Below, in pieces: positions 3,754 through 13,672 of a stretch of DNA of 13,672 nucleotides. The stretch lies in UHGV virus genome UHGV-0140246. One strand, written 5' to 3'. The notes below the pieces were generated by a model, which ran no database searches, was not told where the DNA came from, and saw nothing but the letters and a program-made list of their open reading frames with translations. This DNA is from a virus. The first letter of the stretch is position 1. Each line of letters opens with the position of its first letter. The translations under genes and the position numbers were made by a program.

Positions 3754-4053
3754 ATGAGAACATATTTATCTGGCTTGACTGCCAGCGGTTATGCACACCC
3801 CAAAATTATCCCCGGCGCTATTTATCTGGATAAGAACGGTAACAGAGTAACGGTAAAAGAACTGATGTTTGACCGTGTGTATTTTATTCGTGATGGCTAT
3901 TCATTTCATAGTTCGCTGAACGTGGAGATCTTTATTAGCAGATTCAGGCGGGAAATCCCGCTTTCCAGAAAAAACCATGTGTCACGTGTGAATGTGGATA
4001 AAAAACTACAGGAACTGAAAAACATGATTGCCGCGTGGAGAGAGCAGAAATGA
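3754..4053 (+). CDS. Hypothetical protein (99 aa)
   Basis: ORF whose stop overlaps the start of the primase gene (ATGA at 4050-4053). Confidence 0.55.
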   Translation: MRTYLSGLTASGYAHPKIIPGAIYLDKNGNRVTVKELMFDRVYFIRDGYSFHSSLNVEIFISRFRREIPLSRKNHVSRVNVDKKLQELKNMIAAWREQK

Positions 4054-5867
4054 AAAAAGCGCCAAATTTAAAACACCAGCCGCGTGACAAAATGACGGAA
4101 GTCATCATTTTTGCGGGTAGTGATGCGTGGGCACATGCGAAGCAGTGGCAGGAACAGGACGGGCGACTGGCTGGCGATAACGTGCCTCCTGTCTGGCTTG
4201 GAGAGCAACAACTTGCCGAACTGGACAACCTGCAAATCGTACCGGACGGACGCTATCGCGTGCGTCTCTATCAGGCGGGGTTATTGCGTCCGGGGCTTGT
4301 TAATACCATCGGGCAGAAACTGGCAGCGGCAGGTGTCAGGGATGCTGATTATTACCCTGAAGGAATGCACAGCCAGAAACGGGAGAACTGGCGCGAATAT
4401 CTGGAACGTGAGCGGGGAGAGCTGGCGGAAAAGAAAAAGGTAGTTGAACTGCCTGTAAAGAAAAAAGAGCGGGTAAAAGACGATAACGCTTCATCACTGG
4501 CGCTTAACCAGATGGGAGCAAGTCAACGCGGCGAAGTTCTCCTGGCACATTATGGCGGTGAACTGGCGATTCATGCCGACTCTGACACTGTTCACCATTA
4601 CAACGGCGTTGTATGGGAGCCGGTTCAGGATAAAGAGTTACAGCGTGCTATGGCGCAGATTTTCATTGATGCGGAGATCAGCTATTCGCAGAACGCCATT
4701 AAATCGGCGGTCGATACCATGAAGTTAAGTTTGCCTGTAATGGGGAATACAGCCCGTAACCTGATTGGATTCAGTAACGGGGTATTTGATACCAGAACAG
4801 GTAATTTTCGGGAGCATAACAAAAACGACTGGTTGTTAATTGCCAGTGAATTACCTTTCAGCCCACCAGCAGAGGGGGAAACGCTGGCAACACATGCGCC
4901 GAATTTCTGGAAGTGGTTACGCCGTTCGGTGGCTGAGAATGACCGCAAGGCGGATCGCGTACTGGCTGCATTATTCATGGTGCTGGCGAACCGGTACGAC
5001 TGGCAGTTATTCATTGAGGTAACAGGTCCAGGGGGAAGTGGTAAAAGCGTGATGGCGGAGATTTGCACCATGCTGGCGGGTAAGGCCAACACAGTATCGG
5101 CAAGCATGAAGGCGCTGGAAGATGCAAGGGAACGCGCGTTAGTGGTTGGCTTTTCGCTGATTATCATGCCGGATATGACCCGCTACGCTGGTGATGGGGC
5201 AGGGATTAAGGCTATTACAGGCGGTGACAAGGTGGCAATTGACCCGAAACACAAAGCCCCCTACTCAACGCGTATTCCGGCAGTAGTGCTGGCGGTTAAC
5301 AATAACGCCATGTCATTCAGTGACCGCAGTGGGGGGATCTCACGTCGTCGGGTGATATTCAATTTTTCGGAAGTTGTACCGGAGAACGAACGTGATCCAA
5401 TGCTGGCGGAAAAAATAGAAGGTGAGCTGGCGGTAGTGATTCGCCATCTGCTTACACGGTTTGCTGACCAGGACGAAGCCAGACGCCTGTTATATGAGCA
5501 GCAGAAATCTGAAGAAGCACTGGCGATAAAGCGAGAGGGGGATTCGCTGGTGGACTTCTGCGGCTATCTCATGGCGTCGGTAATGTGTGATGGCCTGTTA
5601 GTGGGTAATGCTGAAATTGTGCCATTCAGCCCACGCAGGTATCTCTATCATGCCTATCTGGCTTATATGAGGGCACATGGGTTTGGTAAACCTGTAACAC
5701 TGACGCGCTTCGGTAAAGATATGCCGGGGGCAATGGCGGAATATGGCAGGGAGTATATGAAACGGAAAACGAAGCACGGTTTGCGTTCAAACGTGACACT
5801 GACGGAGGAATCAGAAGACTGGATGCCATCATGTGTATCGGTCACTAATGACGATAGCAAAAATTAA
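4050..5867 (+). CDS. Primase/helicase replication protein (P4 alpha-like, P-loop NTPase); start probably ATG 4050 rather than GTG 4035
   Basis: About 605-aa ORF; Walker A motif TGPGGSGKS in the central region; GGAGAG Shine-Dalgarno before ATG 4050; an iteron cluster lies immediately downstream. Confidence 0.7.
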   Translation: MKKAPNLKHQPRDKMTEVIIFAGSDAWAHAKQWQEQDGRLAGDNVPPVWLGEQQLAELDNLQIVPDGRYRVRLYQAGLLRPGLVNTIGQKLAAAGVRDADYYPEGMHSQKRENWREYLERERGELAEKKKVVELPVKKKERVKDDNASSLALNQMGASQRGEVLLAHYGGELAIHADSDTVHHYNGVVWEPVQDKELQRAMAQIFIDAEISYSQNAIKSAVDTMKLSLPVMGNTARNLIGFSNGVFDTRTGNFREHNKNDWLLIASELPFSPPAEGETLATHAPNFWKWLRRSVAENDRKADRVLAALFMVLANRYDWQLFIEVTGPGGSGKSVMAEICTMLAGKANTVSASMKALEDARERALVVGFSLIIMPDMTRYAGDGAGIKAITGGDKVAIDPKHKAPYSTRIPAVVLAVNNNAMSFSDRSGGISRRRVIFNFSEVVPENERDPMLAEKIEGELAVVIRHLLTRFADQDEARRLLYEQQKSEEALAIKREGDSLVDFCGYLMASVMCDGLLVGNAEIVPFSPRRYLYHAYLAYMRAHGFGKPVTLTRFGKDMPGAMAEYGREYMKRKTKHGLRSNVTLTEESEDWMPSCVSVTNDDSKN

Positions 5868-6154: not shown

Positions 6155-6400
6155 ATGACAGCGAAGCACACAAAAAAATCACAATCGCACGCCCTTGATT
6201 TGACGGAACACTGGTTAAGGGTGTCGATAAAAATCATCGACCGCAACGCCGGGGAAGGATATGCGAAAGCACATCCCGAACTGATTAGCTCATTCATGAC
6301 AACGGCAGCTGCAAACTTTGCCACGCTGACAGAACGGGAGATTGCCGAAGCGGAACAGGTGACAACCATCAACGTTAAAACCGGAGAGCAGACAGCATGA
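6155..6400 (+). CDS. Hypothetical protein (81 aa)
   Basis: ORF co-oriented with the operon; its stop overlaps the SSB start (ATGA at 6397-6400); weak ribosome-binding site. Confidence 0.45.
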   Translation: MTAKHTKKSQSHALDLTEHWLRVSIKIIDRNAGEGYAKAHPELISSFMTTAAANFATLTEREIAEAEQVTTINVKTGEQTA

Positions 6401-6819
6401 CAGCACAGATAGCAGCTTACGGGCGGCTGGTGGCTGACCCGCAGTTAAAGACCACCAGCAAGGGCACACAAATGGCTATGGCAAGCATGGCGGTCCACCT
6501 GCCGTGCAATCAGGCAGATGACGGACAGGCGACGATGTGGTTATCCGTCCTGGCGTTTGGCAGACAGGCCGACGCACTGGCAAAACACCACAAAGGCGAG
6601 CTGGTGAGCGTGGCGGGTAACATGCAGGTAAGCCAGTGGACAGGCCAGAACGGGGAAACGCGGCAGGGCTGGCAGGTTATCGCAGACAGCGTAATCAGTG
6701 CCAGAACGGCGCGACCTGGTGGCAAAAAAGGCCAGCAGGGTCAGGCTACTGACGCTCTAAATAGGGCTAAGCAACAGGCGGGGAATGATGATCCATACGG
6801 GGATAACATACCCTTTTAG
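6397..6819 (+). CDS. Single-stranded DNA-binding protein-like (SSB-like)
   Basis: 140-aa ORF; N-terminus MTAQIAAYGRLVADPQLKTTSKG resembles the start of an SSB OB-fold; Gly/Gln-rich linker; C-terminus DDPYGDNIPF resembles the acidic SSB tail ending in IPF. Confidence 0.65.
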   Translation: MTAQIAAYGRLVADPQLKTTSKGTQMAMASMAVHLPCNQADDGQATMWLSVLAFGRQADALAKHHKGELVSVAGNMQVSQWTGQNGETRQGWQVIADSVISARTARPGGKKGQQGQATDALNRAKQQAGNDDPYGDNIPF

Positions 6820-6836
6820 CGATAACAGGGGGATAC

Positions 6837-7085
6837 ATGCCAGTGACATTTGAAGAAGTTCAGCAACATAAAAAGTTTCATGGTATTGATGATCTGGAAA
6901 CCACGACAGCAAAAAAATATCGCCGTCTGCTTTCTTCCGATGCGTTATTTGTTGTGGATCATCATGATTTTCTGCGCAGCTCACTGACCGGGGAAATTTT
7001 CGCAACCAACCGTGAGCAGGTGGAAGCGATGATCGAATATTTGTGGAAAATAAGGCGCAGAATGCGCGATCCCGTGAAACAGTAA
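6837..7085 (+). CDS. Hypothetical protein (82 aa)
   Basis: ORF preceded by GGGGGA Shine-Dalgarno; followed 10 nt later by a strong terminator. Confidence 0.5.
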   Translation: MPVTFEEVQQHKKFHGIDDLETTTAKKYRRLLSSDALFVVDHHDFLRSSLTGEIFATNREQVEAMIEYLWKIRRRMRDPVKQ

Positions 7086-7094
7086 AGCGATAAA

Positions 7095-7122
7095 GGCCCG
7101 GATTTTTCCCGGGTCTTTTTTT
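7095..7122 (+). terminator. Rho-independent terminator ending the replication operon
   Basis: Stem GGCCCGG / CCGGGTC (7095-7101 and 7109-7115) with a 7-nt loop, followed by seven T (7116-7122). Confidence 0.7.
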
Positions 7123-7359
7123 CAGGTTTTGTAAATTATTTGTTCGTGGTTGTTTCTGGCTGTTCAGTGATTCTGGCTGATATTTACATACTGATTTTTA
7201 TGTATATGTTGGCGTGTGGCACTCAGACGTGAGCCGCCACAATGCCGCCTGACCCCCTGCGCGATGCCGGGTTGATCTGCGAGATGCCGAGAGTGTCGGG
7301 CGGCGCTCCCTCCGTGTTGGTTTCACGTCCTGAATCTTAACCAATACGAGAAAACCTTC

Positions 7360-8529
7360 ATGAAGAAATTAATCGAACTCCGCCAGCAAAAAACCGCCCT
7401 GAAAAACCAGATGCGATCCCTGCTGGAAAAAGCCGACAGTGAAAACCGCAGCCTGAACGATGACGAGGGCAAACAGTTTGATGAACTGCGTGCAAAAGCC
7501 GACTCCCTCGACACAGAAATTTCCCGCCTCGAGTCTGTGGCTGATGAAGAACGCAGCAAGCCAGGAACGGGCATCCAGAAATTATCATCTGATGAATTGC
7601 GTAACTACATCGTAACCGGAGATGTGCGATCACTGTCCACCAGCACTGACAGCGGCAGGGATGGCGGATATACCGTAATTCCTGAGCTCGATCGCGAAGT
7701 CATGCGCCAGCTACAGGATGACAGTGTTATGCGCGTGATCGCGACCGTGAAGACTGCAAAATCAAATGAGTTTCAGAAACTGGTTTCCACTGGCGGCGCA
7801 ACTGTAGGACGAGGCACAGAAGGCAGCGCACGCAGTGAAACCAACACCCCGAAAATTGAACGCGTAACCATCAAGCTGAATCCGATCTACGCCTACCCGA
7901 AAACCACGCAGGAAATCCTTGATTTTTCAGAGGTGGATATTCTGGGCTGGTTATCCTCCGAAATTGCCGACACGTTCGCCAGCACCGAAGAGGATGATTT
8001 TGTTAATGGCGACGGTAACGGCAAGCCGAAAGGCTTCATGGCTTACACCCGTGCGGCGACCAGTGACAAAACCCGCGCTTTTGGCACCATTGAAAAAATG
8101 GTAGCGGCAAGTGGAACCGCCATTACAGCGGACGAACTGATCGACATTCTCTACAAGCTGAAAGCGAAATACCGCAAAAATGCCGTCTGGGTGATGAACT
8201 CGGGCACGGCAGGGACACTACAGAAGCTGAAAAATGAGAACGGCGATTATATCTGGCGCGACAGCCTTAAAGAAGGTGCGCCGGATATGTTGCTTGGTCG
8301 TCCTGTTTACTGCCTGGAGTCCATGCCGGACATCGGCGCAGGAAAAGCACCGCTAGCGGTTGGCGATTTCAGTCGTGGTTATTTCATCGTTGATCATGTA
8401 ACAGGGATTCGCACCCGACCGGACAACATTACTGAACCCGGATTCTACAAGGTCCACACGGATAAATATCTGGGCGGTGGTGTGGTGGATTCAAACGCCA
8501 TCAAAATTCTGGAAATGAAAGCTGGCTAG
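7360..8529 (+). CDS. Major capsid protein, HK97 family
   Basis: 389-aa ORF; N-terminal coiled-coil-like region (MKKLIELRQQKTALKNQMRSLLEKAD...) followed by GGYTVIPELDREVMRQLQDDSVMRVIATVKT, typical of HK97-fold capsid proteins. Confidence 0.8.
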   Translation: MKKLIELRQQKTALKNQMRSLLEKADSENRSLNDDEGKQFDELRAKADSLDTEISRLESVADEERSKPGTGIQKLSSDELRNYIVTGDVRSLSTSTDSGRDGGYTVIPELDREVMRQLQDDSVMRVIATVKTAKSNEFQKLVSTGGATVGRGTEGSARSETNTPKIERVTIKLNPIYAYPKTTQEILDFSEVDILGWLSSEIADTFASTEEDDFVNGDGNGKPKGFMAYTRAATSDKTRAFGTIEKMVAASGTAITADELIDILYKLKAKYRKNAVWVMNSGTAGTLQKLKNENGDYIWRDSLKEGAPDMLLGRPVYCLESMPDIGAGKAPLAVGDFSRGYFIVDHVTGIRTRPDNITEPGFYKVHTDKYLGGGVVDSNAIKILEMKAG

Positions 8530-8540
8530 TCATGAGTAAG

Positions 8541-8563
8541 GAGGAGGCTGCGGCCTCCTTTTT
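8541..8563 (+). terminator. Hairpin plus T-tract immediately after the capsid gene; candidate partial terminator/attenuator
   Basis: Stem AGGAGGC / GCCTCCT (8542-8548 and 8553-8559), 4-nt loop, then TTTT (8560-8563). Confidence 0.45.
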
Positions 8564-8583
8564 CAGCTTTATGGAGTACACCG

Positions 8584-9144
8584 ATGAAAAACACCGATTT
8601 TGAAATCCGCACATCTGAACTGACCGCCAGCAATAAAAAGCTGGTGGGGTATGCCGTTCGCTGGAACAGCCTTTCAGAAATTATCTGGGACGAATTCCGC
8701 GAACAGTTCACGCCGGGGGCTTTTGCTGACTATCTGGCGGCGGGTAATGATGTGCGCTGCCTGTATGAGCATGACTATACCCAACTGCTGGGGCGCACCA
8801 AATCCGGCACTCTGGTACTGACTGAGGATAACACCGGGTTACGTTTTGAACTGACACCGCCGGATACCCAGCTTGGAAAAGATGTGCTTACGCTGGTGGA
8901 GCGTGGCGACATTACAGGAATGAGCTTTGGTTTTCGCGCATTATGCGAGGAGTGGAGTATCGCGCAAAAACCGTATTTGCGTACCGTAACCGCCGCTGAA
9001 CTCCGTGAAATCACAATAACGTCGATGCCTGCTTATCCAGAATCTGGCGTGGAGATTGCCCACCGTTCGTTGTTTGCACAGCACCCTGAATTATGCCCGA
9101 CAGGAAATAATCGTCATCGCTGGTCTGAGCTGGCGGGGTTGTGA
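8584..9144 (+). CDS. Prohead maturation protease, HK97 family
   Basis: 186-aa ORF; LVGYAVRWNSLSEIIWDEFREQFTPGAFADYL and ITGMSFGFR motifs match my recollection of HK97-type prohead proteases. Confidence 0.75.
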   Translation: MKNTDFEIRTSELTASNKKLVGYAVRWNSLSEIIWDEFREQFTPGAFADYLAAGNDVRCLYEHDYTQLLGRTKSGTLVLTEDNTGLRFELTPPDTQLGKDVLTLVERGDITGMSFGFRALCEEWSIAQKPYLRTVTAAELREITITSMPAYPESGVEIAHRSLFAQHPELCPTGNNRHRWSELAGL

Positions 9145-9145
9145 T

Positions 9146-10360
9146 ATGTGGTGGCCTTTTAGTCGTAAAAAAAGCGAGCAGCGTAACCTGTCCATTGATG
9201 ATTTTCTGGCGCTGTCCGGCGTACCGAATACCGGATCCGGAGAATATGTTTCTGCCGGGACGGCTGAATCATTGCCTGCAGTGATGAATGCGGTTTCTGT
9301 CATCGCTGAGGCGGTGGCCACGATGCCGTGTTATCTGTATCTGGTACGTAATGACAAGGGCAGGGAGGCGCGGGAATGGCTGGACAGTCACCCGGTAGAT
9401 ATTCTGCTGAATGAGCAGCCTAATTCGTGCCAGACACCTTACCAGTTTAAACGCACAATGATGCGTCACTGCCTGCTGAACGGTAACGCCTATGCGGTTA
9501 TTGAGTGGGGGCAGGACGGGCAGCCAAAATCACTTCATCCTTATGCGCCGGGGTGTGTTGTACCGGAACGCACAGGCGCACACAAATACCGCTATACCAT
9601 CACCGAACCCTATACAGGAACGGTGCGCACGTATTTACAGGAAGAAGTTCTGCATCTCCGCTATGCCTCGGATGATGGCTTTCTGGGGCGCTCCCCCGTC
9701 ACGATTTGCCGTGAGGCACTTGGGCTTGGCCTTGCTCAACAGCGCCACGGAGCCAGCATTATGAAAGATGGCATGATGGCGGCAGGGATTATCACGTCAG
9801 GCGAATGGCTGGACGGCGTGAAAGGTAAACAGGCATTGGATGCTCTGGAACGCTACAAGGGGGCGAAAAATGCCGGAAAAACGCCAATCCTTGAAGGGGG
9901 CATGGATTACAGGCAACTGGGAATGAGTAACCAGGATGCGGAATGGCTGGCCTCCCGTCGCTTCTCCATTGAAGACATCGCCCGCATGTTCAACGTATCG
10001 CCTATTTTTCTGCAGGAATACAGCAACAGCACCTACAGCAATTTCAGCGAGGCAAGCCGCGCGTTTCTGACCATGACAATGCGCCCGTGGCTGGCGAACT
10101 TCGAACAGCAAATCAAGGCCGCTTTGCTGGTGGCTTCTCCCGTACCTGGTACCCGTTATCTGGTTGAGTTTGATTCAGCCGATTTATTACGCGCCACACC
10201 CACCGAACGTTATGCCACGTATGAGAAAGGGATTAAGAACGGGATCATGAATCCGAACGAAGCCCGTGAGCGTGAGGGTATGCCGCCGCGTGAAGGTGGT
10301 GATGAGTTCAGCCAGGCATGGAAACAGACTGTGGAAATTAAAGGGAGAAAAGATGATTGA
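9146..10360 (+). CDS. Portal protein, HK97 family; start taken as ATG 9146, 1 nt after the protease stop
   Basis: About 404-aa product; LPAVMNAVSVIAEAVATMPCYLY motif near the N-terminus; the ORF is open from 9056 but that would overlap the protease gene by about 90 nt. Confidence 0.75.
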   Translation: MWWPFSRKKSEQRNLSIDDFLALSGVPNTGSGEYVSAGTAESLPAVMNAVSVIAEAVATMPCYLYLVRNDKGREAREWLDSHPVDILLNEQPNSCQTPYQFKRTMMRHCLLNGNAYAVIEWGQDGQPKSLHPYAPGCVVPERTGAHKYRYTITEPYTGTVRTYLQEEVLHLRYASDDGFLGRSPVTICREALGLGLAQQRHGASIMKDGMMAAGIITSGEWLDGVKGKQALDALERYKGAKNAGKTPILEGGMDYRQLGMSNQDAEWLASRRFSIEDIARMFNVSPIFLQEYSNSTYSNFSEASRAFLTMTMRPWLANFEQQIKAALLVASPVPGTRYLVEFDSADLLRATPTERYATYEKGIKNGIMNPNEAREREGMPPREGGDEFSQAWKQTVEIKGRKDD

Positions 10361-10655
10361 AGCCAGAATTACACCTGATGAAGTCAGGGCACATCTTCGA
10401 CTTGATGATGATTTATCCGGTGAAGGCGAACTTCTGAAAATGTATACCGATGCGGCGCTGGAAGCCTGCCAGAAGCATATCGGGAAACGTTTTGAAGACG
10501 GGCTGGAATTTACCCCGGCAATGCGTGTTGGTTGCCTGATGTACATCGCTTTCCTGTACGAGAACCGGGAAGCGGTTTCACCAGTGGAGCACTCGGAACT
10601 GCCTATGGCTATTTCTGCGCTCTGGTCAGTTTATCGTGACGTAGGGGTGTACTGA
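10353..10655 (+). CDS. Head-tail connector protein (gp6-like)
   Basis: Internal ATG at 10353 preceded by GGGAGAAAAG; translation MIEARITPDEVRAHLRLDDDLSGEGELLKMYTDAALEACQ resembles the gp6-like connector family; overlaps the portal stop. Confidence 0.65.
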   Translation: MIEARITPDEVRAHLRLDDDLSGEGELLKMYTDAALEACQKHIGKRFEDGLEFTPAMRVGCLMYIAFLYENREAVSPVEHSELPMAISALWSVYRDVGVY

Positions 10656-11095
10656 TGCCGTGGCAACCATTAAGGCGATGCACTGAGCCTGGCTGTAATA
10701 AGCGCGTGAAGTCCGGCAAGTGTGAAGAGCACAGGCGGGCTGCATGGCGTGCAGAGGATGCCAGACGGGGACACCGCCGCGCGCGCGGGTATTCCCGACA
10801 GTGGGACAAATACCGCGCCCTGTACCTGAGCAAAAACCCGTTATGCGTGCGTTGTCTGGCTAAGGGGATTTATACGCCAGCTCTTGTGGTGGATCACATC
10901 ATTCCCATCAATGGCGGCGGTGATGTTCTCTTCTGGCCTGAGTGGAATCACCAGGCATTGTGCCAGACGTGCCACAACCGTAAGACGACACGGGAAGATC
11001 CAGCCACGAAAGCAAACCGTAAAGCGGGCATGTATCGCGAGCAGGAAGAACGGGCGGCACACCGTAACGACTGGATGTATGGCGATGATGACTGA
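10655..11095 (+). CDS. HNH endonuclease (phage packaging-associated)
   Basis: 146-aa ORF; Cys-rich N-terminus; HNH-like core DHIIPINGGG...NHQALCQTCHNRKT; located immediately upstream of the terminase genes. Confidence 0.8.
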   Translation: MPWQPLRRCTEPGCNKRVKSGKCEEHRRAAWRAEDARRGHRRARGYSRQWDKYRALYLSKNPLCVRCLAKGIYTPALVVDHIIPINGGGDVLFWPEWNHQALCQTCHNRKTTREDPATKANRKAGMYREQEERAAHRNDWMYGDDD

Positions 11096-11264
11096 ACAGG
11101 AGCAAACCAGGCTGATACGTGGACTGATAAGGCAGCGTGACACATGGAAGACACAGGAGACAGAGCACAAAGCCAACAGGACAGGGCGCACAAAACGCAC
11201 CACAGCGAAGCGATTAACCGACCGTGACCGCGAGGTCATGGAATGTTTTCGCAATCGCTGGTGA
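11079..11264 (+). CDS. Possible small basic protein overlapping the HNH 3' end in another frame; existence uncertain
   Basis: ORF from ATG 11079 (alternative ATGs at 11085 and 11088) encoding MAMMTEQEQTRLIRGLIRQRDTWKTQETEHKANRTGRTKRTTAKRLTDRDREVMECFRNRW; no clear Shine-Dalgarno. Confidence 0.3.
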   Translation: MAMMTEQEQTRLIRGLIRQRDTWKTQETEHKANRTGRTKRTTAKRLTDRDREVMECFRNRW

Positions 11265-11383
11265 GGCCGTCAGAGGGGGTGGGGGTGGTTTTCAGGACGA
11301 AACCGTCCCTGCCGGACACCGACCGCCCCCTCAAATTTTTGTGCACGGTAATTTTTTTGAAAATAATTGGGCGAAAAAAGAAC
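11265..11383. other. Candidate cos/packaging-signal region between the HNH gene and terS
   Basis: G-runs CAGAGGGGGTGGGGGTGG (11271-11288); nested inverted repeats GAGGGGG (11273-11279) / CCCCCTC (11326-11332) and GGACG / CGTCC (11295-11308); followed by AT-rich T-tracts 11336-11357. Confidence 0.4.
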
Positions 11384-11740
11384 ATGGCAAGACCACCAAA
11401 AGCCCCCGCTTACCTGGATGAAATCGCGGTCAGGCAGTGGAAGGAAAAATCGCGCCAGCTTTCCGGGCGGGAAGACCTTACCCCCGCCGACTGGAGCAAT
11501 CTGGAACTGTATTGCGTTAACTACTCCATATACCGCAAAGCCGTCGAAGACCTTGCGACGCGCGGGTTCAGCATTGTTAACAGTCAGGGCAGCGAGAGCA
11601 GAAACCCCGCCCTGAGCGCAAAGGCTGACGCAGAAAGAATAATGATCAAAATGGCTTCTTTGCTGGGTTTTGACCCGGTAAGCCGCCGCAGAAATCCACC
11701 GGAAACAGAGGAAGAGGACGAGCTTGACTGCCTGGCATGA
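11384..11740 (+). CDS. terS: Terminase small subunit, P27 family-like
   Basis: Internal ATG at 11384; N-terminus MARPPKAPAYLDEIAVRQWKE matches what I recall of P27-family TerS; about 118 aa; the ORF is open from 11243 but that part overlaps the cos-like region. Confidence 0.7.
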   Translation: MARPPKAPAYLDEIAVRQWKEKSRQLSGREDLTPADWSNLELYCVNYSIYRKAVEDLATRGFSIVNSQGSESRNPALSAKADAERIMIKMASLLGFDPVSRRRNPPETEEEDELDCLA

Positions 11741-13385
11741 GTACGCAGAAGGCGTAAAAAACGGCAAAATTACGGCCTGTAAACGACTGAAACAGGCCGT
11801 TAAACGGTATTTTTCTGACCTTGAAAACCCCCTTTACACGTTCGATCCGGAGGTCGTTGAGCGGTTTATTGCCTTTTCCAGGGTGTGTCCGCACGTAAAA
11901 GGCGCAATGCGTGGTAGCCCCATTGAGCTGGAGCCGTGGCAGCAGTTCGCCTTTGCGTGCATCCTGGGCTTTAAGGTTAAGGCCACCGGACGGCGCAAAT
12001 ACACCAGCGCATTCATTGAAGTACCGCGAAAAAATGCCAAATCCACGGTCGCCGCTATCCTGGCTAACTGGTTTCTGGTTATGGAAAACGGGCAGCAGGA
12101 TATTTACACCGCCGCCGTGAGTCGTGATCAGGCGCGGATCGTGTTTGATGATGCGCGTCAGATGTGCCTTTTATCCCGACCGTTACGAAAGCGGGTAAAT
12201 ATTCAGGCACACAAGGTGATACACCCGAAAACCAACAGCCTGTTAAAGCCACTGGCAGCAAAAGCAGCAACCATTGAAGGTACAAACCCGAGTCTTGCCA
12301 TTGTGGATGAATATCACCTGCACCCTGACAACGGGGTTTATTCCGCGCTTGAACTGGGAATGGGGGCACGCCCAGAGGGGCTGTTATTTGCCATCACCAC
12401 ATCGGGGAGCAACGTTGTTTCAGCCTGTAAACAACACTACGACTATTGCTGCCAGATACTGGATGGTGAAGAGGTGAACGAATCCATGTTCGTGCTGATT
12501 TATGAGCTGGATGATGAAAGCGAGGTTGACGATCCGGCGATGTGGATAAAGGCGAATCCCAATATCGATGTTTCCGTAGATCGTGAAAAACTGGCCTCAA
12601 CCATCCAGAAAGCGCGGGGTATTCCGTCGCAGTGGGTGGAAATGCTCACCAAGCGATTCAATATCTGGTGTCAGGGGGCTACGCCGTGGATGGGTAACGG
12701 TGCATGGGCTGAGTGCGCCGGAACGTTCACGGAGGAAGATTTACACGGTCAGGAGTGTTACGCGGGGCTTGATTTATCATCCACAAGCGACATCTCCAGC
12801 GTGTGCTATGCCTTTCCGGTTGGTAAAACCATTATGCTGGTTTCTCGTCACTATCTGCCGGAATTTCAGCTACAGAACCCCGCCAATAAAAACCGCGCCA
12901 TCTATCGCCAGTGGGCAAAGGCGGGCTGGATACGCACAACACCGGGTGACTGCATTGATTATGACCGTATCCGTGATGACATCATGCTGGATGCAGAGAA
13001 TTTCAATATCAGGCTGGTGGGCTTTGATACGTGGAACGCCACGCACCTGAGAACGCAGTTACAGGGGGCAGGCTTTGAGGTGGAGCCGTTCCCTCAAACC
13101 TACCTTCGTTTCAGTCCGGCGGCGAAATCGTTCGAGGTTTTTGTTAACCGGAAGGTGATTGTGCATCGTGGTGATCCTGTGCTGGCCTGGTCAATGAGTA
13201 ATGTTGTGATGCAGAGTGACGCGAACGCCAATATCAAGCCGAACAAGAAAAAATCATCCAACAAGATAGACCCGAGCGTTGCGGCGCTGATGGCGTTTGG
13301 CACATTCCAGGCTGAGCATGAGGAATTTGCATTTGATATGAGCGACAGCCAGAAAGAGCGACTAGCGGCGTTTGATGGGGTATGA
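11724..13385 (+). CDS. terL: Terminase large subunit; apparent TTG start at 11724 with GAGGA Shine-Dalgarno 5 nt upstream
   Basis: 553-aa ORF overlapping the terS 3' end by 17 nt; first in-frame ATG lies about 60 codons further in; size and position after terS fit a large terminase. Confidence 0.8.
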   Translation: MTAWHEYAEGVKNGKITACKRLKQAVKRYFSDLENPLYTFDPEVVERFIAFSRVCPHVKGAMRGSPIELEPWQQFAFACILGFKVKATGRRKYTSAFIEVPRKNAKSTVAAILANWFLVMENGQQDIYTAAVSRDQARIVFDDARQMCLLSRPLRKRVNIQAHKVIHPKTNSLLKPLAAKAATIEGTNPSLAIVDEYHLHPDNGVYSALELGMGARPEGLLFAITTSGSNVVSACKQHYDYCCQILDGEEVNESMFVLIYELDDESEVDDPAMWIKANPNIDVSVDREKLASTIQKARGIPSQWVEMLTKRFNIWCQGATPWMGNGAWAECAGTFTEEDLHGQECYAGLDLSSTSDISSVCYAFPVGKTIMLVSRHYLPEFQLQNPANKNRAIYRQWAKAGWIRTTPGDCIDYDRIRDDIMLDAENFNIRLVGFDTWNATHLRTQLQGAGFEVEPFPQTYLRFSPAAKSFEVFVNRKVIVHRGDPVLAWSMSNVVMQSDANANIKPNKKKSSNKIDPSVAALMAFGTFQAEHEEFAFDMSDSQKERLAAFDGV

Positions 13386-13672
13386 CGAGAATGACTGAAA
13401 CTGATCTACTAAAAATAATTCGCCGCATTACCGGAATCAGTCAGCAGCCTGACGAACAGGCTACACAGCCGGACAGCGTGATAGCCGAAAATTACGCGCG
13501 TGTGGTGGCTGAGGTAATGCGCCGTGACGGTATTGAGCTTAACGGCGTGGATATGCGCAACATACGAACCAGAGTTCTTGAGTTGCTGGCATACCGTCGC
13601 CGTTCTCAACAACGGAGGGAGAGCGCGAAAAATACTTACCAGTGGAGGAAGCCGGAGCACTTACGGCGGTAA
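13382..13672 (+). CDS. Hypothetical protein (96 aa), last gene of the packaging operon within the window
   Basis: ATG overlaps the terL stop (ATGA at 13382-13385); stop TAA at 13670-13672. Confidence 0.5.
   Translation: MTRMTETDLLKIIRRITGISQQPDEQATQPDSVIAENYARVVAEVMRRDGIELNGVDMRNIRTRVLELLAYRRRSQQRRESAKNTYQWRKPEHLRR

Follow-up and report, generated by a model that had tools for sequence, protein, structure and literature searches.

Packaging-gene order in the 13,672-nt stretch UHGV-0140246: the fixed signature of a known cf-PICI satellite lineage

[quoted passage not shown] The order of these genes and its contrast with that of the helper phage have been stated in the cf-PICI paper (Alqurainy et al., 10.1101/2022.09.08.507074), and the identical gene list has served as a search criterion (He et al., 10.1101/2025.02.11.637232). 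Elements lacking one core component are still accepted by SatelliteFinder, under the class 'Type B'. Classical E. coli PICIs (EcCICFT073 type) share, according to the literature, the integrase-alpA-primase backbone and the dependence on a helper; however, they lack capsid, portal and TerL genes of their own, all three of which are encoded by the island described below.

The window, by which we mean the whole stretch of DNA under analysis (UHGV-0140246, 13,672 nt), is in all likelihood an almost complete E. coli cf-PICI that carries its own packaging module, belongs to this known family and displays the gene order that is the signature of its lineage. It is an ordinary member of the family, and its gene order is already published rather than new. 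A record from E. coli 181.1 matches it at 98.4% identity over the full window length, and in that copy the island occupies the space separating nfeF from a tRNA gene with anticodon CAT (tRNA-Ile2), with chromosomal genes on its flanks and the 3' end of the tRNA gene as its integration point. A 65-nt direct repeat of the 3' part of the tRNA is found 14,771 nt away from the tRNA copy, and of this repeat-to-repeat span the window takes in 13,672 nt, from the integrase gene to the last ORF. The island of ~14.8 kb is therefore within the size expected of a cf-PICI (about 10-18 kb, with attachment-site repeats at both ends), and it also carries the integrase, AlpA-type regulation and replication module of such elements (PF00589, PF05930, D5 primase domains, SSB). 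The features to the left of the packaging module are as follows.

1-1422, + strand: integrase (PF00589 and Arm-DNA-bind_3; RefSeq calls an integrase in the 98%-identical E. coli 181.1 record)
2509-2763, + strand: AlpA-family regulator/excisionase (PF05930, E 6e-17)
4035-5867, + strand: D5-type primase/helicase of the replication module (D5_N, DUF5906 and Pox_D5 domains)
6397-6819, + strand: single-strand DNA-binding protein (PF00436, E 5e-17)
6837-7085, + strand: 82-aa ORF just 5' of the capsid gene (phrog_1957, E 8e-37)
7095-7122, + strand: terminator-like hairpin and T7 run (GGCCCGG-ATTTTTC-CCGGGTC then TTTTTTT, read by eye from the sequence)
7183-7210, + strand: weak candidate sigma-70-like site (9/12 consensus matches, within the 275-nt gap 5' of the capsid gene)

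Seven of the eight cf-PICI core genes are present in the window in the published order, the head-tail genes being represented by one of two (Ad1 only), and all window ORFs are intact and closely packed. Pfam and PHROGs profile searches assigned none of the window ORFs to a tail, holin or endolysin family, so that the complete virion set of an HK97-like temperate phage, with tail and lysis genes, is absent from these ORFs; likewise, the window does not contain the order terS-terL-portal-protease-capsid-Ad1-Hc1 seen in BiPBO1, ST64B, phiP27 and 32 phage-type loci of IMG/VR. Nor does the island have the location of a helper-embedded PICI, since its near-identical copy in E. coli 181.1 adjoins nfeF and a tRNA gene and is not inside a prophage.

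The packaging module runs from 7360 to 13385 on one strand in the order capsid, S78 protease, portal, Ad1, HNH, TerS, TerL, with an unambiguous profile match for every gene.

7360-8529, + strand: HK97-fold major capsid protein, opening the module (PF05065, E 2e-71; phrog_10, E 3e-93)
8538-8565, + strand: GC-rich hairpin and T run directly 3' of the capsid stop codon (RNA fold -24.3 kcal/mol, z only -1.7)
8584-9144, + strand: prohead serine protease S78 (PF04586, E 7e-46)
9146-10360, + strand: portal protein (PF04860, E 2e-92; phrog_12, E 5e-118)
10353-10655, + strand: head-tail adaptor Ad1, gp6-like (PF05135, E 8e-5; phrog_40, E 2e-28)
10655-11095, + strand: HNH endonuclease (PF01844, E 9e-10; phrog_144, E 4e-45)
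11079-11264, + strand: conserved 61-aa ORF between HNH and terS (phrog_3173, E 6e-27)
11270-11375, + strand: conserved non-coding block with a probable cos site, between the 61-aa ORF and terS
11384-11740, + strand: small terminase TerS, P27 family (PF05119, E 4e-23; phrog_83, E 6e-38)
11724-13385, + strand: large terminase TerL, ATPase and nuclease domains (PF03354, PF20441; phrog_9, E 2e-180)
13382-13672, + strand: 96-aa ORF after terL, the final gene at the island's right end (phrog_1561, E 7e-48, for the E. coli 181.1 version)

The portal start is placed at 9146 after the RefSeq annotation of the 98%-identical record, the mechanical ORF beginning at 9056, and the TerS start at 11384 is preferred because a longer ORF from 11243 would cross the conserved non-coding block. 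The order and coordinates given for these genes in the earlier note, which had been drawn from the letters of the sequence, proved right by Pfam and PHROGs, and the profile searches left every module ORF with the function originally proposed for it. The 61-aa ORF (11079-11264), the block at ~11270-11375 and the ORFs at 6837-7085 and 13382-13672 had escaped that note.

As for expression of the module, the hairpin at 7095-7122 is terminator-like and might close the upstream (replication) genes, and the one at 8538-8565 is a candidate attenuator or RNA-stabilizing hairpin; a crude scan located a GGGGC-loop-GCCCC hairpin trailed by a T-rich stretch at the post-capsid position in 40 of 74 related loci. 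A consensus promoter/terminator scan missed both hairpins, and it found fewer sigma-70-like sites in the region than in shuffles, so that the site at 7183-7210 is no better than chance. With the capsid gene at the head of the module and a hairpin plus T run behind it, a single promoter might yield more capsid protein than product of the later genes.

For comparison with the prototype we used an island of E. coli O157:H7 86-24 that was found by similarity and that, judging from serotype and size, we take to be of the EcCIEDL933 type. In this island the module is laid out on the same strand and in the same order as in the window, down to the small ORFs that precede the capsid gene and follow HNH and terL, and the proteins of the two are 94% (TerL), 88% (TerS), 84% (HNH), 82% (portal), 64% (capsid), 62% (protease) and 56% (Ad1) identical. 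The small ORFs follow suit, with 43% identity for the 82-aa ORF (whose homologues occupy the equivalent position in ~20 of 80 genome loci), 77% for the 61-aa ORF (seen in ~20 loci) and 67% for the 96-aa ORF. EcCIEDL933 and the proteobacterial cf-PICIs further share with our island the int-alpA-primase-ssb arrangement on the left, a length of ~15 kb, a P27-family TerS and the lack of tail and lysis genes. The two islands differ in attachment site (tRNA-Ile2 in the window versus the roxA-phoQ region), in their integrases and in the primase, which is of the D5 type in the window and of the DUF927 type in the EcCIEDL933 type. The prototype also possesses a head-closure (Hc1) gene that is missing from the window; the latter thus lacks one of the prototype's two head-tail genes, and its behavior may therefore not be identical.

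Two other relatives are informative. Escherichia phage vB_KppS-Ant (LR881103), a 16.5-kb record deposited as a phage and derived from an induced prophage, has the same module in the same order, with 76% (capsid), 87% (portal) and 82% (TerL) identity to the window; unlike the window, it carries Hc1 and, after terL, an accessory gene of 2.3 kb. The packaging module of an island in E. coli O177:H21 is, the connector genes aside, 98-100% identical to that of the window. This second island lies within, and in the same orientation as, the terL of a lambdoid prophage, i.e. in the helper-embedded PICI arrangement (Mageeney et al., PMC10111431), whereas the island of the window is not embedded, has an unrelated integrase and uses a tRNA site. 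We considered whether the terL-embedded relative might represent a new phenomenon and rejected the idea, as helper-embedded PICIs and cf-PICIs have already been described.

Beyond individual relatives, the module order is kept in all 60 complete modules that we recovered from genomes of Enterobacterales, Pasteurellales and Orbales, the two loci flagged in this survey amounting to one split Ad1 hit and one partial tandem copy. Viral contigs were scanned with a TerL alignment, the alignment of distant capsids offering no stretch that was conserved enough. In IMG/VR, satellite order was found at 48/48 loci whose TerL is 68-100% identical and phage order at 32/32 loci whose TerL is at most 39% identical, with no TerL identity between 39% and 68% and a single locus of ambiguous order owing to a confused hit pattern. 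Capsid relatives at 40-45% identity retain capsid-protease-portal in satellite-like contexts, and relatives of 10.7-16.5 kb, one of them from an induced prophage, have been deposited under phage genomes. By identity, capsid and TerL group with the cf-PICI type, at 61-100% to satellite-sized records and cf-PICI-type loci against at most 37-39% to phages; our clade statements rest on such identity bands and on published trees. We conclude that capsid-protease-portal-(Hc1)-Ad1-HNH-cos-terS-terL is a fixed signature of the satellite lineage.

The phages bear out the reference order that had been assumed for the HK97 type, since BiPBO1, ST64B and phiP27 all read terS-terL-portal-protease-capsid-Ad1(-Hc1). 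One of them, phiP27 (NC_003356), an example of the HNH-requiring HK97-type cos phages, shares with the island an HK97-fold capsid, portal, Ad1, HNH, a P27-family TerS and TerL, with 30-39% identity across the six proteins that gave a BLASTP match; for the gene that takes the place of the protease in phiP27, BLASTP found no similarity to the S78 protease of the window. Its HNH gene and annotated cos site lie directly upstream of terS, so that HNH-cos-terS-terL is collinear with the island; in contrast, the head genes that follow terL run portal-protease-capsid-Ad1, and the 42-kb genome includes the full set of tail and lysis genes that the island lacks. The cos site of the island lies probably within 11270-11375, near 11320-11329, as homology to phiP27, conservation and the ends of one record suggest. 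More precisely, the cos site annotated in phiP27 lines up with CGACCGCCCC at 11320-11329, window positions 11320-11345 share homology with the cos of phiP27 (CGCCCGCCCC plus TCAAATTTTTAC), and in a 65-sequence alignment conservation is at least 90% in most columns of GGGGTGGGGG...ACCGCCCCC(T)C..TCAAATTTTTACGCACGG.ATTTTTTTGAAAAT. The LR881103 record ends and restarts in a block homologous to 11270-11375, but without ~75 nt of it.

These maps bear on the possibility that there is no true rearrangement at all, the odd order arising because an integrated map, permuted at the attachment site, is read instead of the cos-to-cos virion map. Permutation does explain why HNH is next to terS and why the terminases come at the end, as the prophage map of phiP27 and the linear LR881103 record illustrate: the former also reads HNH-cos-terS-terL with a homologous cos at the same spot, and the latter reads terS-terL ... 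capsid-protease-portal-Hc1-Ad1-HNH, with terminases first and HNH last as in HK97-type phages. The earlier description of the terminases as having moved to the end consequently does not hold. Permutation cannot, however, convert portal-protease-capsid-Ad1-Hc1 into capsid-protease-portal-Hc1-Ad1 on the same strand, nor can it interpose the integrase and replication genes between terL and the head block. It is thus refuted by the maps as a full explanation, in which capacity we hold it to be improbable, and stands as a partial one. What differs is that capsid and portal have exchanged places on either side of the protease, in agreement with the earlier observation that the capsid gene precedes the other two; that Hc1 comes before Ad1 in the satellite relatives that have both, versus after it in phages; and that the head block sits upstream of HNH rather than downstream of terL, because on the circular map the integrase, regulation and replication genes separate terL from the capsid gene.

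A rearranged order might also be read as the debris of a decayed HK97-like prophage with its genes scrambled and its tail and lysis genes deleted, a reading to which the lack of tail and lysis genes in the window and the absence of Hc1 by comparison with its relatives lend some color. It is nonetheless very improbable and already contradicted: the ORFs are all intact and tightly packed, the same order recurs in every complete module of many genera and in the 48 viral contigs, the portal-Ad1-HNH junction is common to 159 complete E. coli genomes, relatives of 10.7-16.5 kb have been submitted to databases as phages (one of them obtained from an induced prophage), and each module gene of the prototype is needed for transfer. 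Recent capture of the module from a helper phage, followed by rearrangement, could draw on the fact that the gene set is that of HK97/P27 phages and that the cos region is recognizably homologous to that of phiP27, yet we consider it extremely improbable given that the best identities to true phages are 37% for both capsid and TerL, that the six phiP27 proteins reach only 30-39%, that TerL identities leave a gap from 39% to 68%, and that the phages with the best capsid match are not those with the best TerL match. The earlier inference that this is not a recent capture accordingly stands, the nearest true phages reaching no more than 37% identity in capsid and TerL, and the arrangement is fixed across the satellite lineage. 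Synteny with phages and cf-PICIs bears out an HK97-type gene set in a different arrangement, one that departs from the phages and equals the published proteobacterial cf-PICI layout; the earlier reading as an 'independently organised operon' is indistinguishable from that of a set captured long ago and then rearranged.

Having thus placed the window among the cf-PICIs, we turn to its head-tail genes. Hc1 has no match anywhere in the window (tblastn, E up to 10); the Ad1 gene start overlaps the portal stop by 8 nt with no head-closure gene in between, and the distance from portal to HNH is 298 nt in contrast to ~640 nt in relatives with Hc1 and Ad1. The Ad1-only form of this junction, shared by the same 159 complete genomes of E. 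coli, recurs in several further genera, and the E. coli O177:H21 module carries Hc1 and a different Ad1 within an otherwise 98-100% identical context. It is conceivable, if rather doubtful, that Ad1-only islands, provided they are functional, borrow the helper's head-closure (neck) protein along with the tail, or else dock a different class of tail.

By homology, the steps published for EcCIEDL933 may be applied to the island of the window. A helper prophage would elicit AlpA-dependent excision and replication of the island, whose own capsid protein, protease and portal would form small capsids. The HNH protein, a likely partner of the terminase in cos cleavage as in EcCIEDL933, would together with TerS and TerL cut the cos of the island, inside the module in the gap between the 61-aa ORF and terS, with the result that unit-length island DNA would be packaged; the adaptor at the portal vertex would then dock tails made by the helper.

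These findings show that gene order sorted satellites from phages in all the capsid and TerL relatives surveyed except one ambiguous locus, and that this split coincides with a clean gap in sequence identity. They also correct the picture of what was rearranged, the cos/terminase segment being phage-like and the head block being the part that differs, and supply, by way of the annotated phiP27 cos, a cos candidate for the lineage. Were Ad1-only islands indeed to borrow a neck protein or dock other tails, the rule that cf-PICIs steal only tails would be modified for a sizeable sub-group of the family.

Profile searches against Pfam and PHROGs bear out the gene identities, order and coordinates that an earlier note had read from the morphogenesis module (7360-13385, + strand), and this check, which the note itself had named as a possible refutation, did not reassign the ORFs to other functions. 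Every long ORF in the ORF listing of the window lies on the + strand, and the profile assignments are as follows.

1-1422, + strand, tyrosine integrase
2509-2763, + strand, AlpA-family regulator
Left part of the window, + strand, DUF4222 protein
4035-5867, + strand, D5-type primase/helicase
6397-6819, + strand, SSB
7360-8529, + strand, major capsid protein
8584-9144, + strand, S78 prohead protease
9146-10360, + strand, portal
10353-10655, + strand, head-tail adaptor Ad1
10655-11095, + strand, HNH endonuclease
11079-11264, + strand, conserved 61-aa ORF
11384-11740, + strand, P27-family small terminase
11724-13385, + strand, large terminase

A 96-aa ORF on the + strand follows the large terminase and reaches the window end, and no window ORF matched a tail, holin or endolysin family in either profile collection.

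Along its entire length the window matches part of the E. coli 181.1 chromosome (locus L001) at 98.4% identity; there the copy is flanked by nfeF on one side and, on the other, by a tRNA gene with anticodon CAT that RefSeq labels tRNA-Ile. The 3' part of this tRNA recurs as a 65-nt direct repeat immediately left of the integrase gene, at a distance of 14,771 nt from the copy in the tRNA; location and repeats thus make the element a tRNA-inserted island of ~14.8 kb, of which the window spans the first to the last gene. Immediately inside both island ends is another repeat, which includes GGTATCCTATAGGTATCCT (L001 5756-5950 and 20457-20591). With an integrase, AlpA, a primase and a head and packaging set, without tail or lysis genes, in ~15 kb, the element fits the definition of a capsid-forming phage-inducible chromosomal island (cf-PICI). 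The founding paper describes EcCIEDL933 (15.4 kb) as a cf-PICI whose transfer requires each packaging-module gene, the helper head genes being dispensable (10.1101/2022.09.08.507074).

The core gene organisation of cf-PICIs has been reported as very conserved in the SatelliteFinder paper (PMC10085698), and our surveys agree on this point. Among 80 loci from species-representative genomes of Enterobacterales, Pasteurellales and Orbales, with capsids 63-76% identical to that of the window and homologues of each window protein placed by tblastn, all 60 complete modules read capsid-protease-portal-(Hc1)-Ad1-HNH-(61-aa ORF)-terS-terL on one strand, Hc1 being the head-closure gene, and 13 partial loci are compatible with this order. 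Apparent re-orderings flagged by script at two loci were rejected, as they amounted to a split Ad1 match and a partial tandem copy. A second survey, of viral contigs in IMG/VR with TerL as the starting point, found the satellite order at all 48 loci with TerL 68-100% identical to that of the window; the 32 loci at or below 39% read (HNH)-terS-terL-portal-protease-capsid-Ad1-Hc1, bar one confused match pattern (L172), and no locus fell between 39% and 68%. Searching 50%-identity cluster representatives retrieved deeper capsid relatives at 40-45% identity, which also have capsid-protease-portal within small, satellite-like surroundings, so that the capsid-first arrangement reaches well beyond the enterobacterial clade; one of them has Ad1 before Hc1, as in phages. 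Reduced satellite-like islands with 40-45% capsid relatives occur on metagenome contigs (L087/L088, L091/L092, L093): one carries capsid-protease-portal-HNH-terS without terL or connector genes, one only terS and capsid beside int and Prim-Pol, and one terL, a 155-aa ORF, capsid, protease and portal. These contigs may represent further satellite layouts.

The earlier note had read this order as suggesting an independently organised operon rather than a recent capture from a helper phage, and the absence of recent capture holds: three true phages, which give best or near-best TerL or capsid matches, all read terS-terL-portal-protease-capsid-Ad1(-Hc1), with proteins only 28-39% identical to those of the window, whereas the island of O157:H7 strain 86-24, taken to be of the EcCIEDL933 type, has the same gene order as the window and 56-94% protein identity, which reproduces the published conclusion. 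In contrast, the terminases only seem to have moved to the end because of the map that is read. The phiP27 record in prophage order also runs HNH, an annotated 10-nt cos site, terS and terL, and the window is arranged alike; the linear record LR881103 (vB_KppS-Ant), from a relative described as an induced prophage, runs terS-terL, an accessory gene, int, regulation, replication and capsid-protease-portal-Hc1-Ad1-HNH. With terS and terL at one end and HNH at the opposite one, the arrangement is thus that of HK97-type phages. What does distinguish the satellite from those phages is that its terL is separated from the head genes by the non-structural genes and the attachment site, that capsid and portal are swapped around the protease, and that Hc1 stands ahead of Ad1. 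Since no gene has changed strand, a single inversion cannot yield the satellite order, and we infer that several events were needed.

The connector region varies within the family. The O157:H7 island, vB_KppS-Ant and Pmp8 carry Hc1 followed by Ad1, whereas the window island carries Ad1 only (10353-10655, in a portal-HNH interval of 10360-10655), with an 8-nt overlap between the portal gene and Ad1; no Hc1-like sequence was found anywhere in the window, and the island lacks a head-closure gene. Of 5,426 complete E. coli genomes, 159 share the Ad1-only portal-Ad1-HNH junction, and several hundred others, O157:H7 strains included, have Hc1 with Ad1. The Ad1-only form is also present in 11 of the 60 complete modules of other genera, and the Ad1 it comes with is of two different types. 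It resembles an alternative connector cassette more than the outcome of decay.

The module is likewise mosaic: against the O157:H7 island (L097, 8232-14573), window 7360-13385 has high values for TerL (94%), TerS (88%), HNH (84%) and portal (82%), and lower ones for capsid (64%), protease (62%) and Ad1 (56%); cf-PICIs appear to trade sub-modules among themselves. In an E. coli O177:H21 cf-PICI (L178, NZ_CP016546, 4311-21516) the packaging module is 98-100% identical to that of the window, the connector cassette excepted, and the capsid 100%; this module sits on a different backbone, whose integrase, unrelated to that of the window, has placed the island within terL of a lambdoid prophage, in the same orientation as that gene. 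The crossover of the terL-embedded island is at TTACCAA, which falls in the stretch encoding the conserved TerL motif F-T-K-H-x-N-x-W; 905 genomes have the rebuilt empty site intact, and the integrase occurs in 36, with all four inspected copies sitting in terL. Further loci of this island are L099, L103, L104 and L179-L181. Tandem GTGTATTGC repeats likewise lie just inside each of its ends, and these and the GGTATCCTATAGGTATCCT repeats of the tRNA-inserted island are probably integrase arm-binding sites. At class level, the terL-embedded island matches the helper-embedded PICIs already described (PMC10111431). The 106.5-kb record of Klebsiella phage P12620-1 (PQ569648.1) contains, at about 90984-105244, a cf-PICI-type terL (83% identical), with capsid to portal (77%) ~10 kb beyond it in the satellite layout; this segment could be a satellite, either co-assembled with a phage or embedded in it.

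The non-coding stretch upstream of terS (11270-11375) is probably the cos site of this satellite lineage, since its sequence and the annotated phiP27 cos region are homologous. Window 11320-11329, CGACCGCCCC followed by TCAAATTTTT, aligns with phiP27 cos CGCCCGCCCC followed by TCAAATTTTT, and a G-rich run lies ~35 nt upstream in both. No other non-coding sequence of the module is as conserved as this ~100-nt block: conservation is strong from E. coli through to Pasteurellaceae and Gilliamella, and most columns are at least 90% conserved over 65 aligned sequences. LR881103 ends inside such a block and restarts 22 nt before terS; the ~75 nt of conserved block that it lacks may have been lost at physical DNA ends.

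Upstream of the capsid gene is a gap of 275 nt that holds a single weak promoter-like site, and two signals were read from the sequence around this gene.

7095-7122, terminator-like hairpin and T7 run, closing the upstream genes
8538-8565, GC-rich hairpin and T run, directly 3' of the capsid stop codon

Of 74 related loci, 40 have a hairpin of the GGGGC-loop-GCCCC type in the same post-capsid place, with differing stem sequences, and the one at 8538-8565 may act as an attenuator or stabilise the RNA. If the capsid gene comes first and a leaky terminator or stabilising hairpin follows it, capsid protein might be made in large excess relative to the portal, connector and terminase proteins, as assembly needs.

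From what the literature has shown for the prototype we infer how the island would work: AlpA would mediate its induction by a helper, the island would then excise and replicate, the module would assemble island proteins into small capsids, HNH, TerS and TerL would cleave the island cos and package a single island genome, and helper tails would join via the adaptor and connector proteins. The non-phage gene order of the cf-PICI module is already in print and hence known, and the window element is an ordinary member of the described family.
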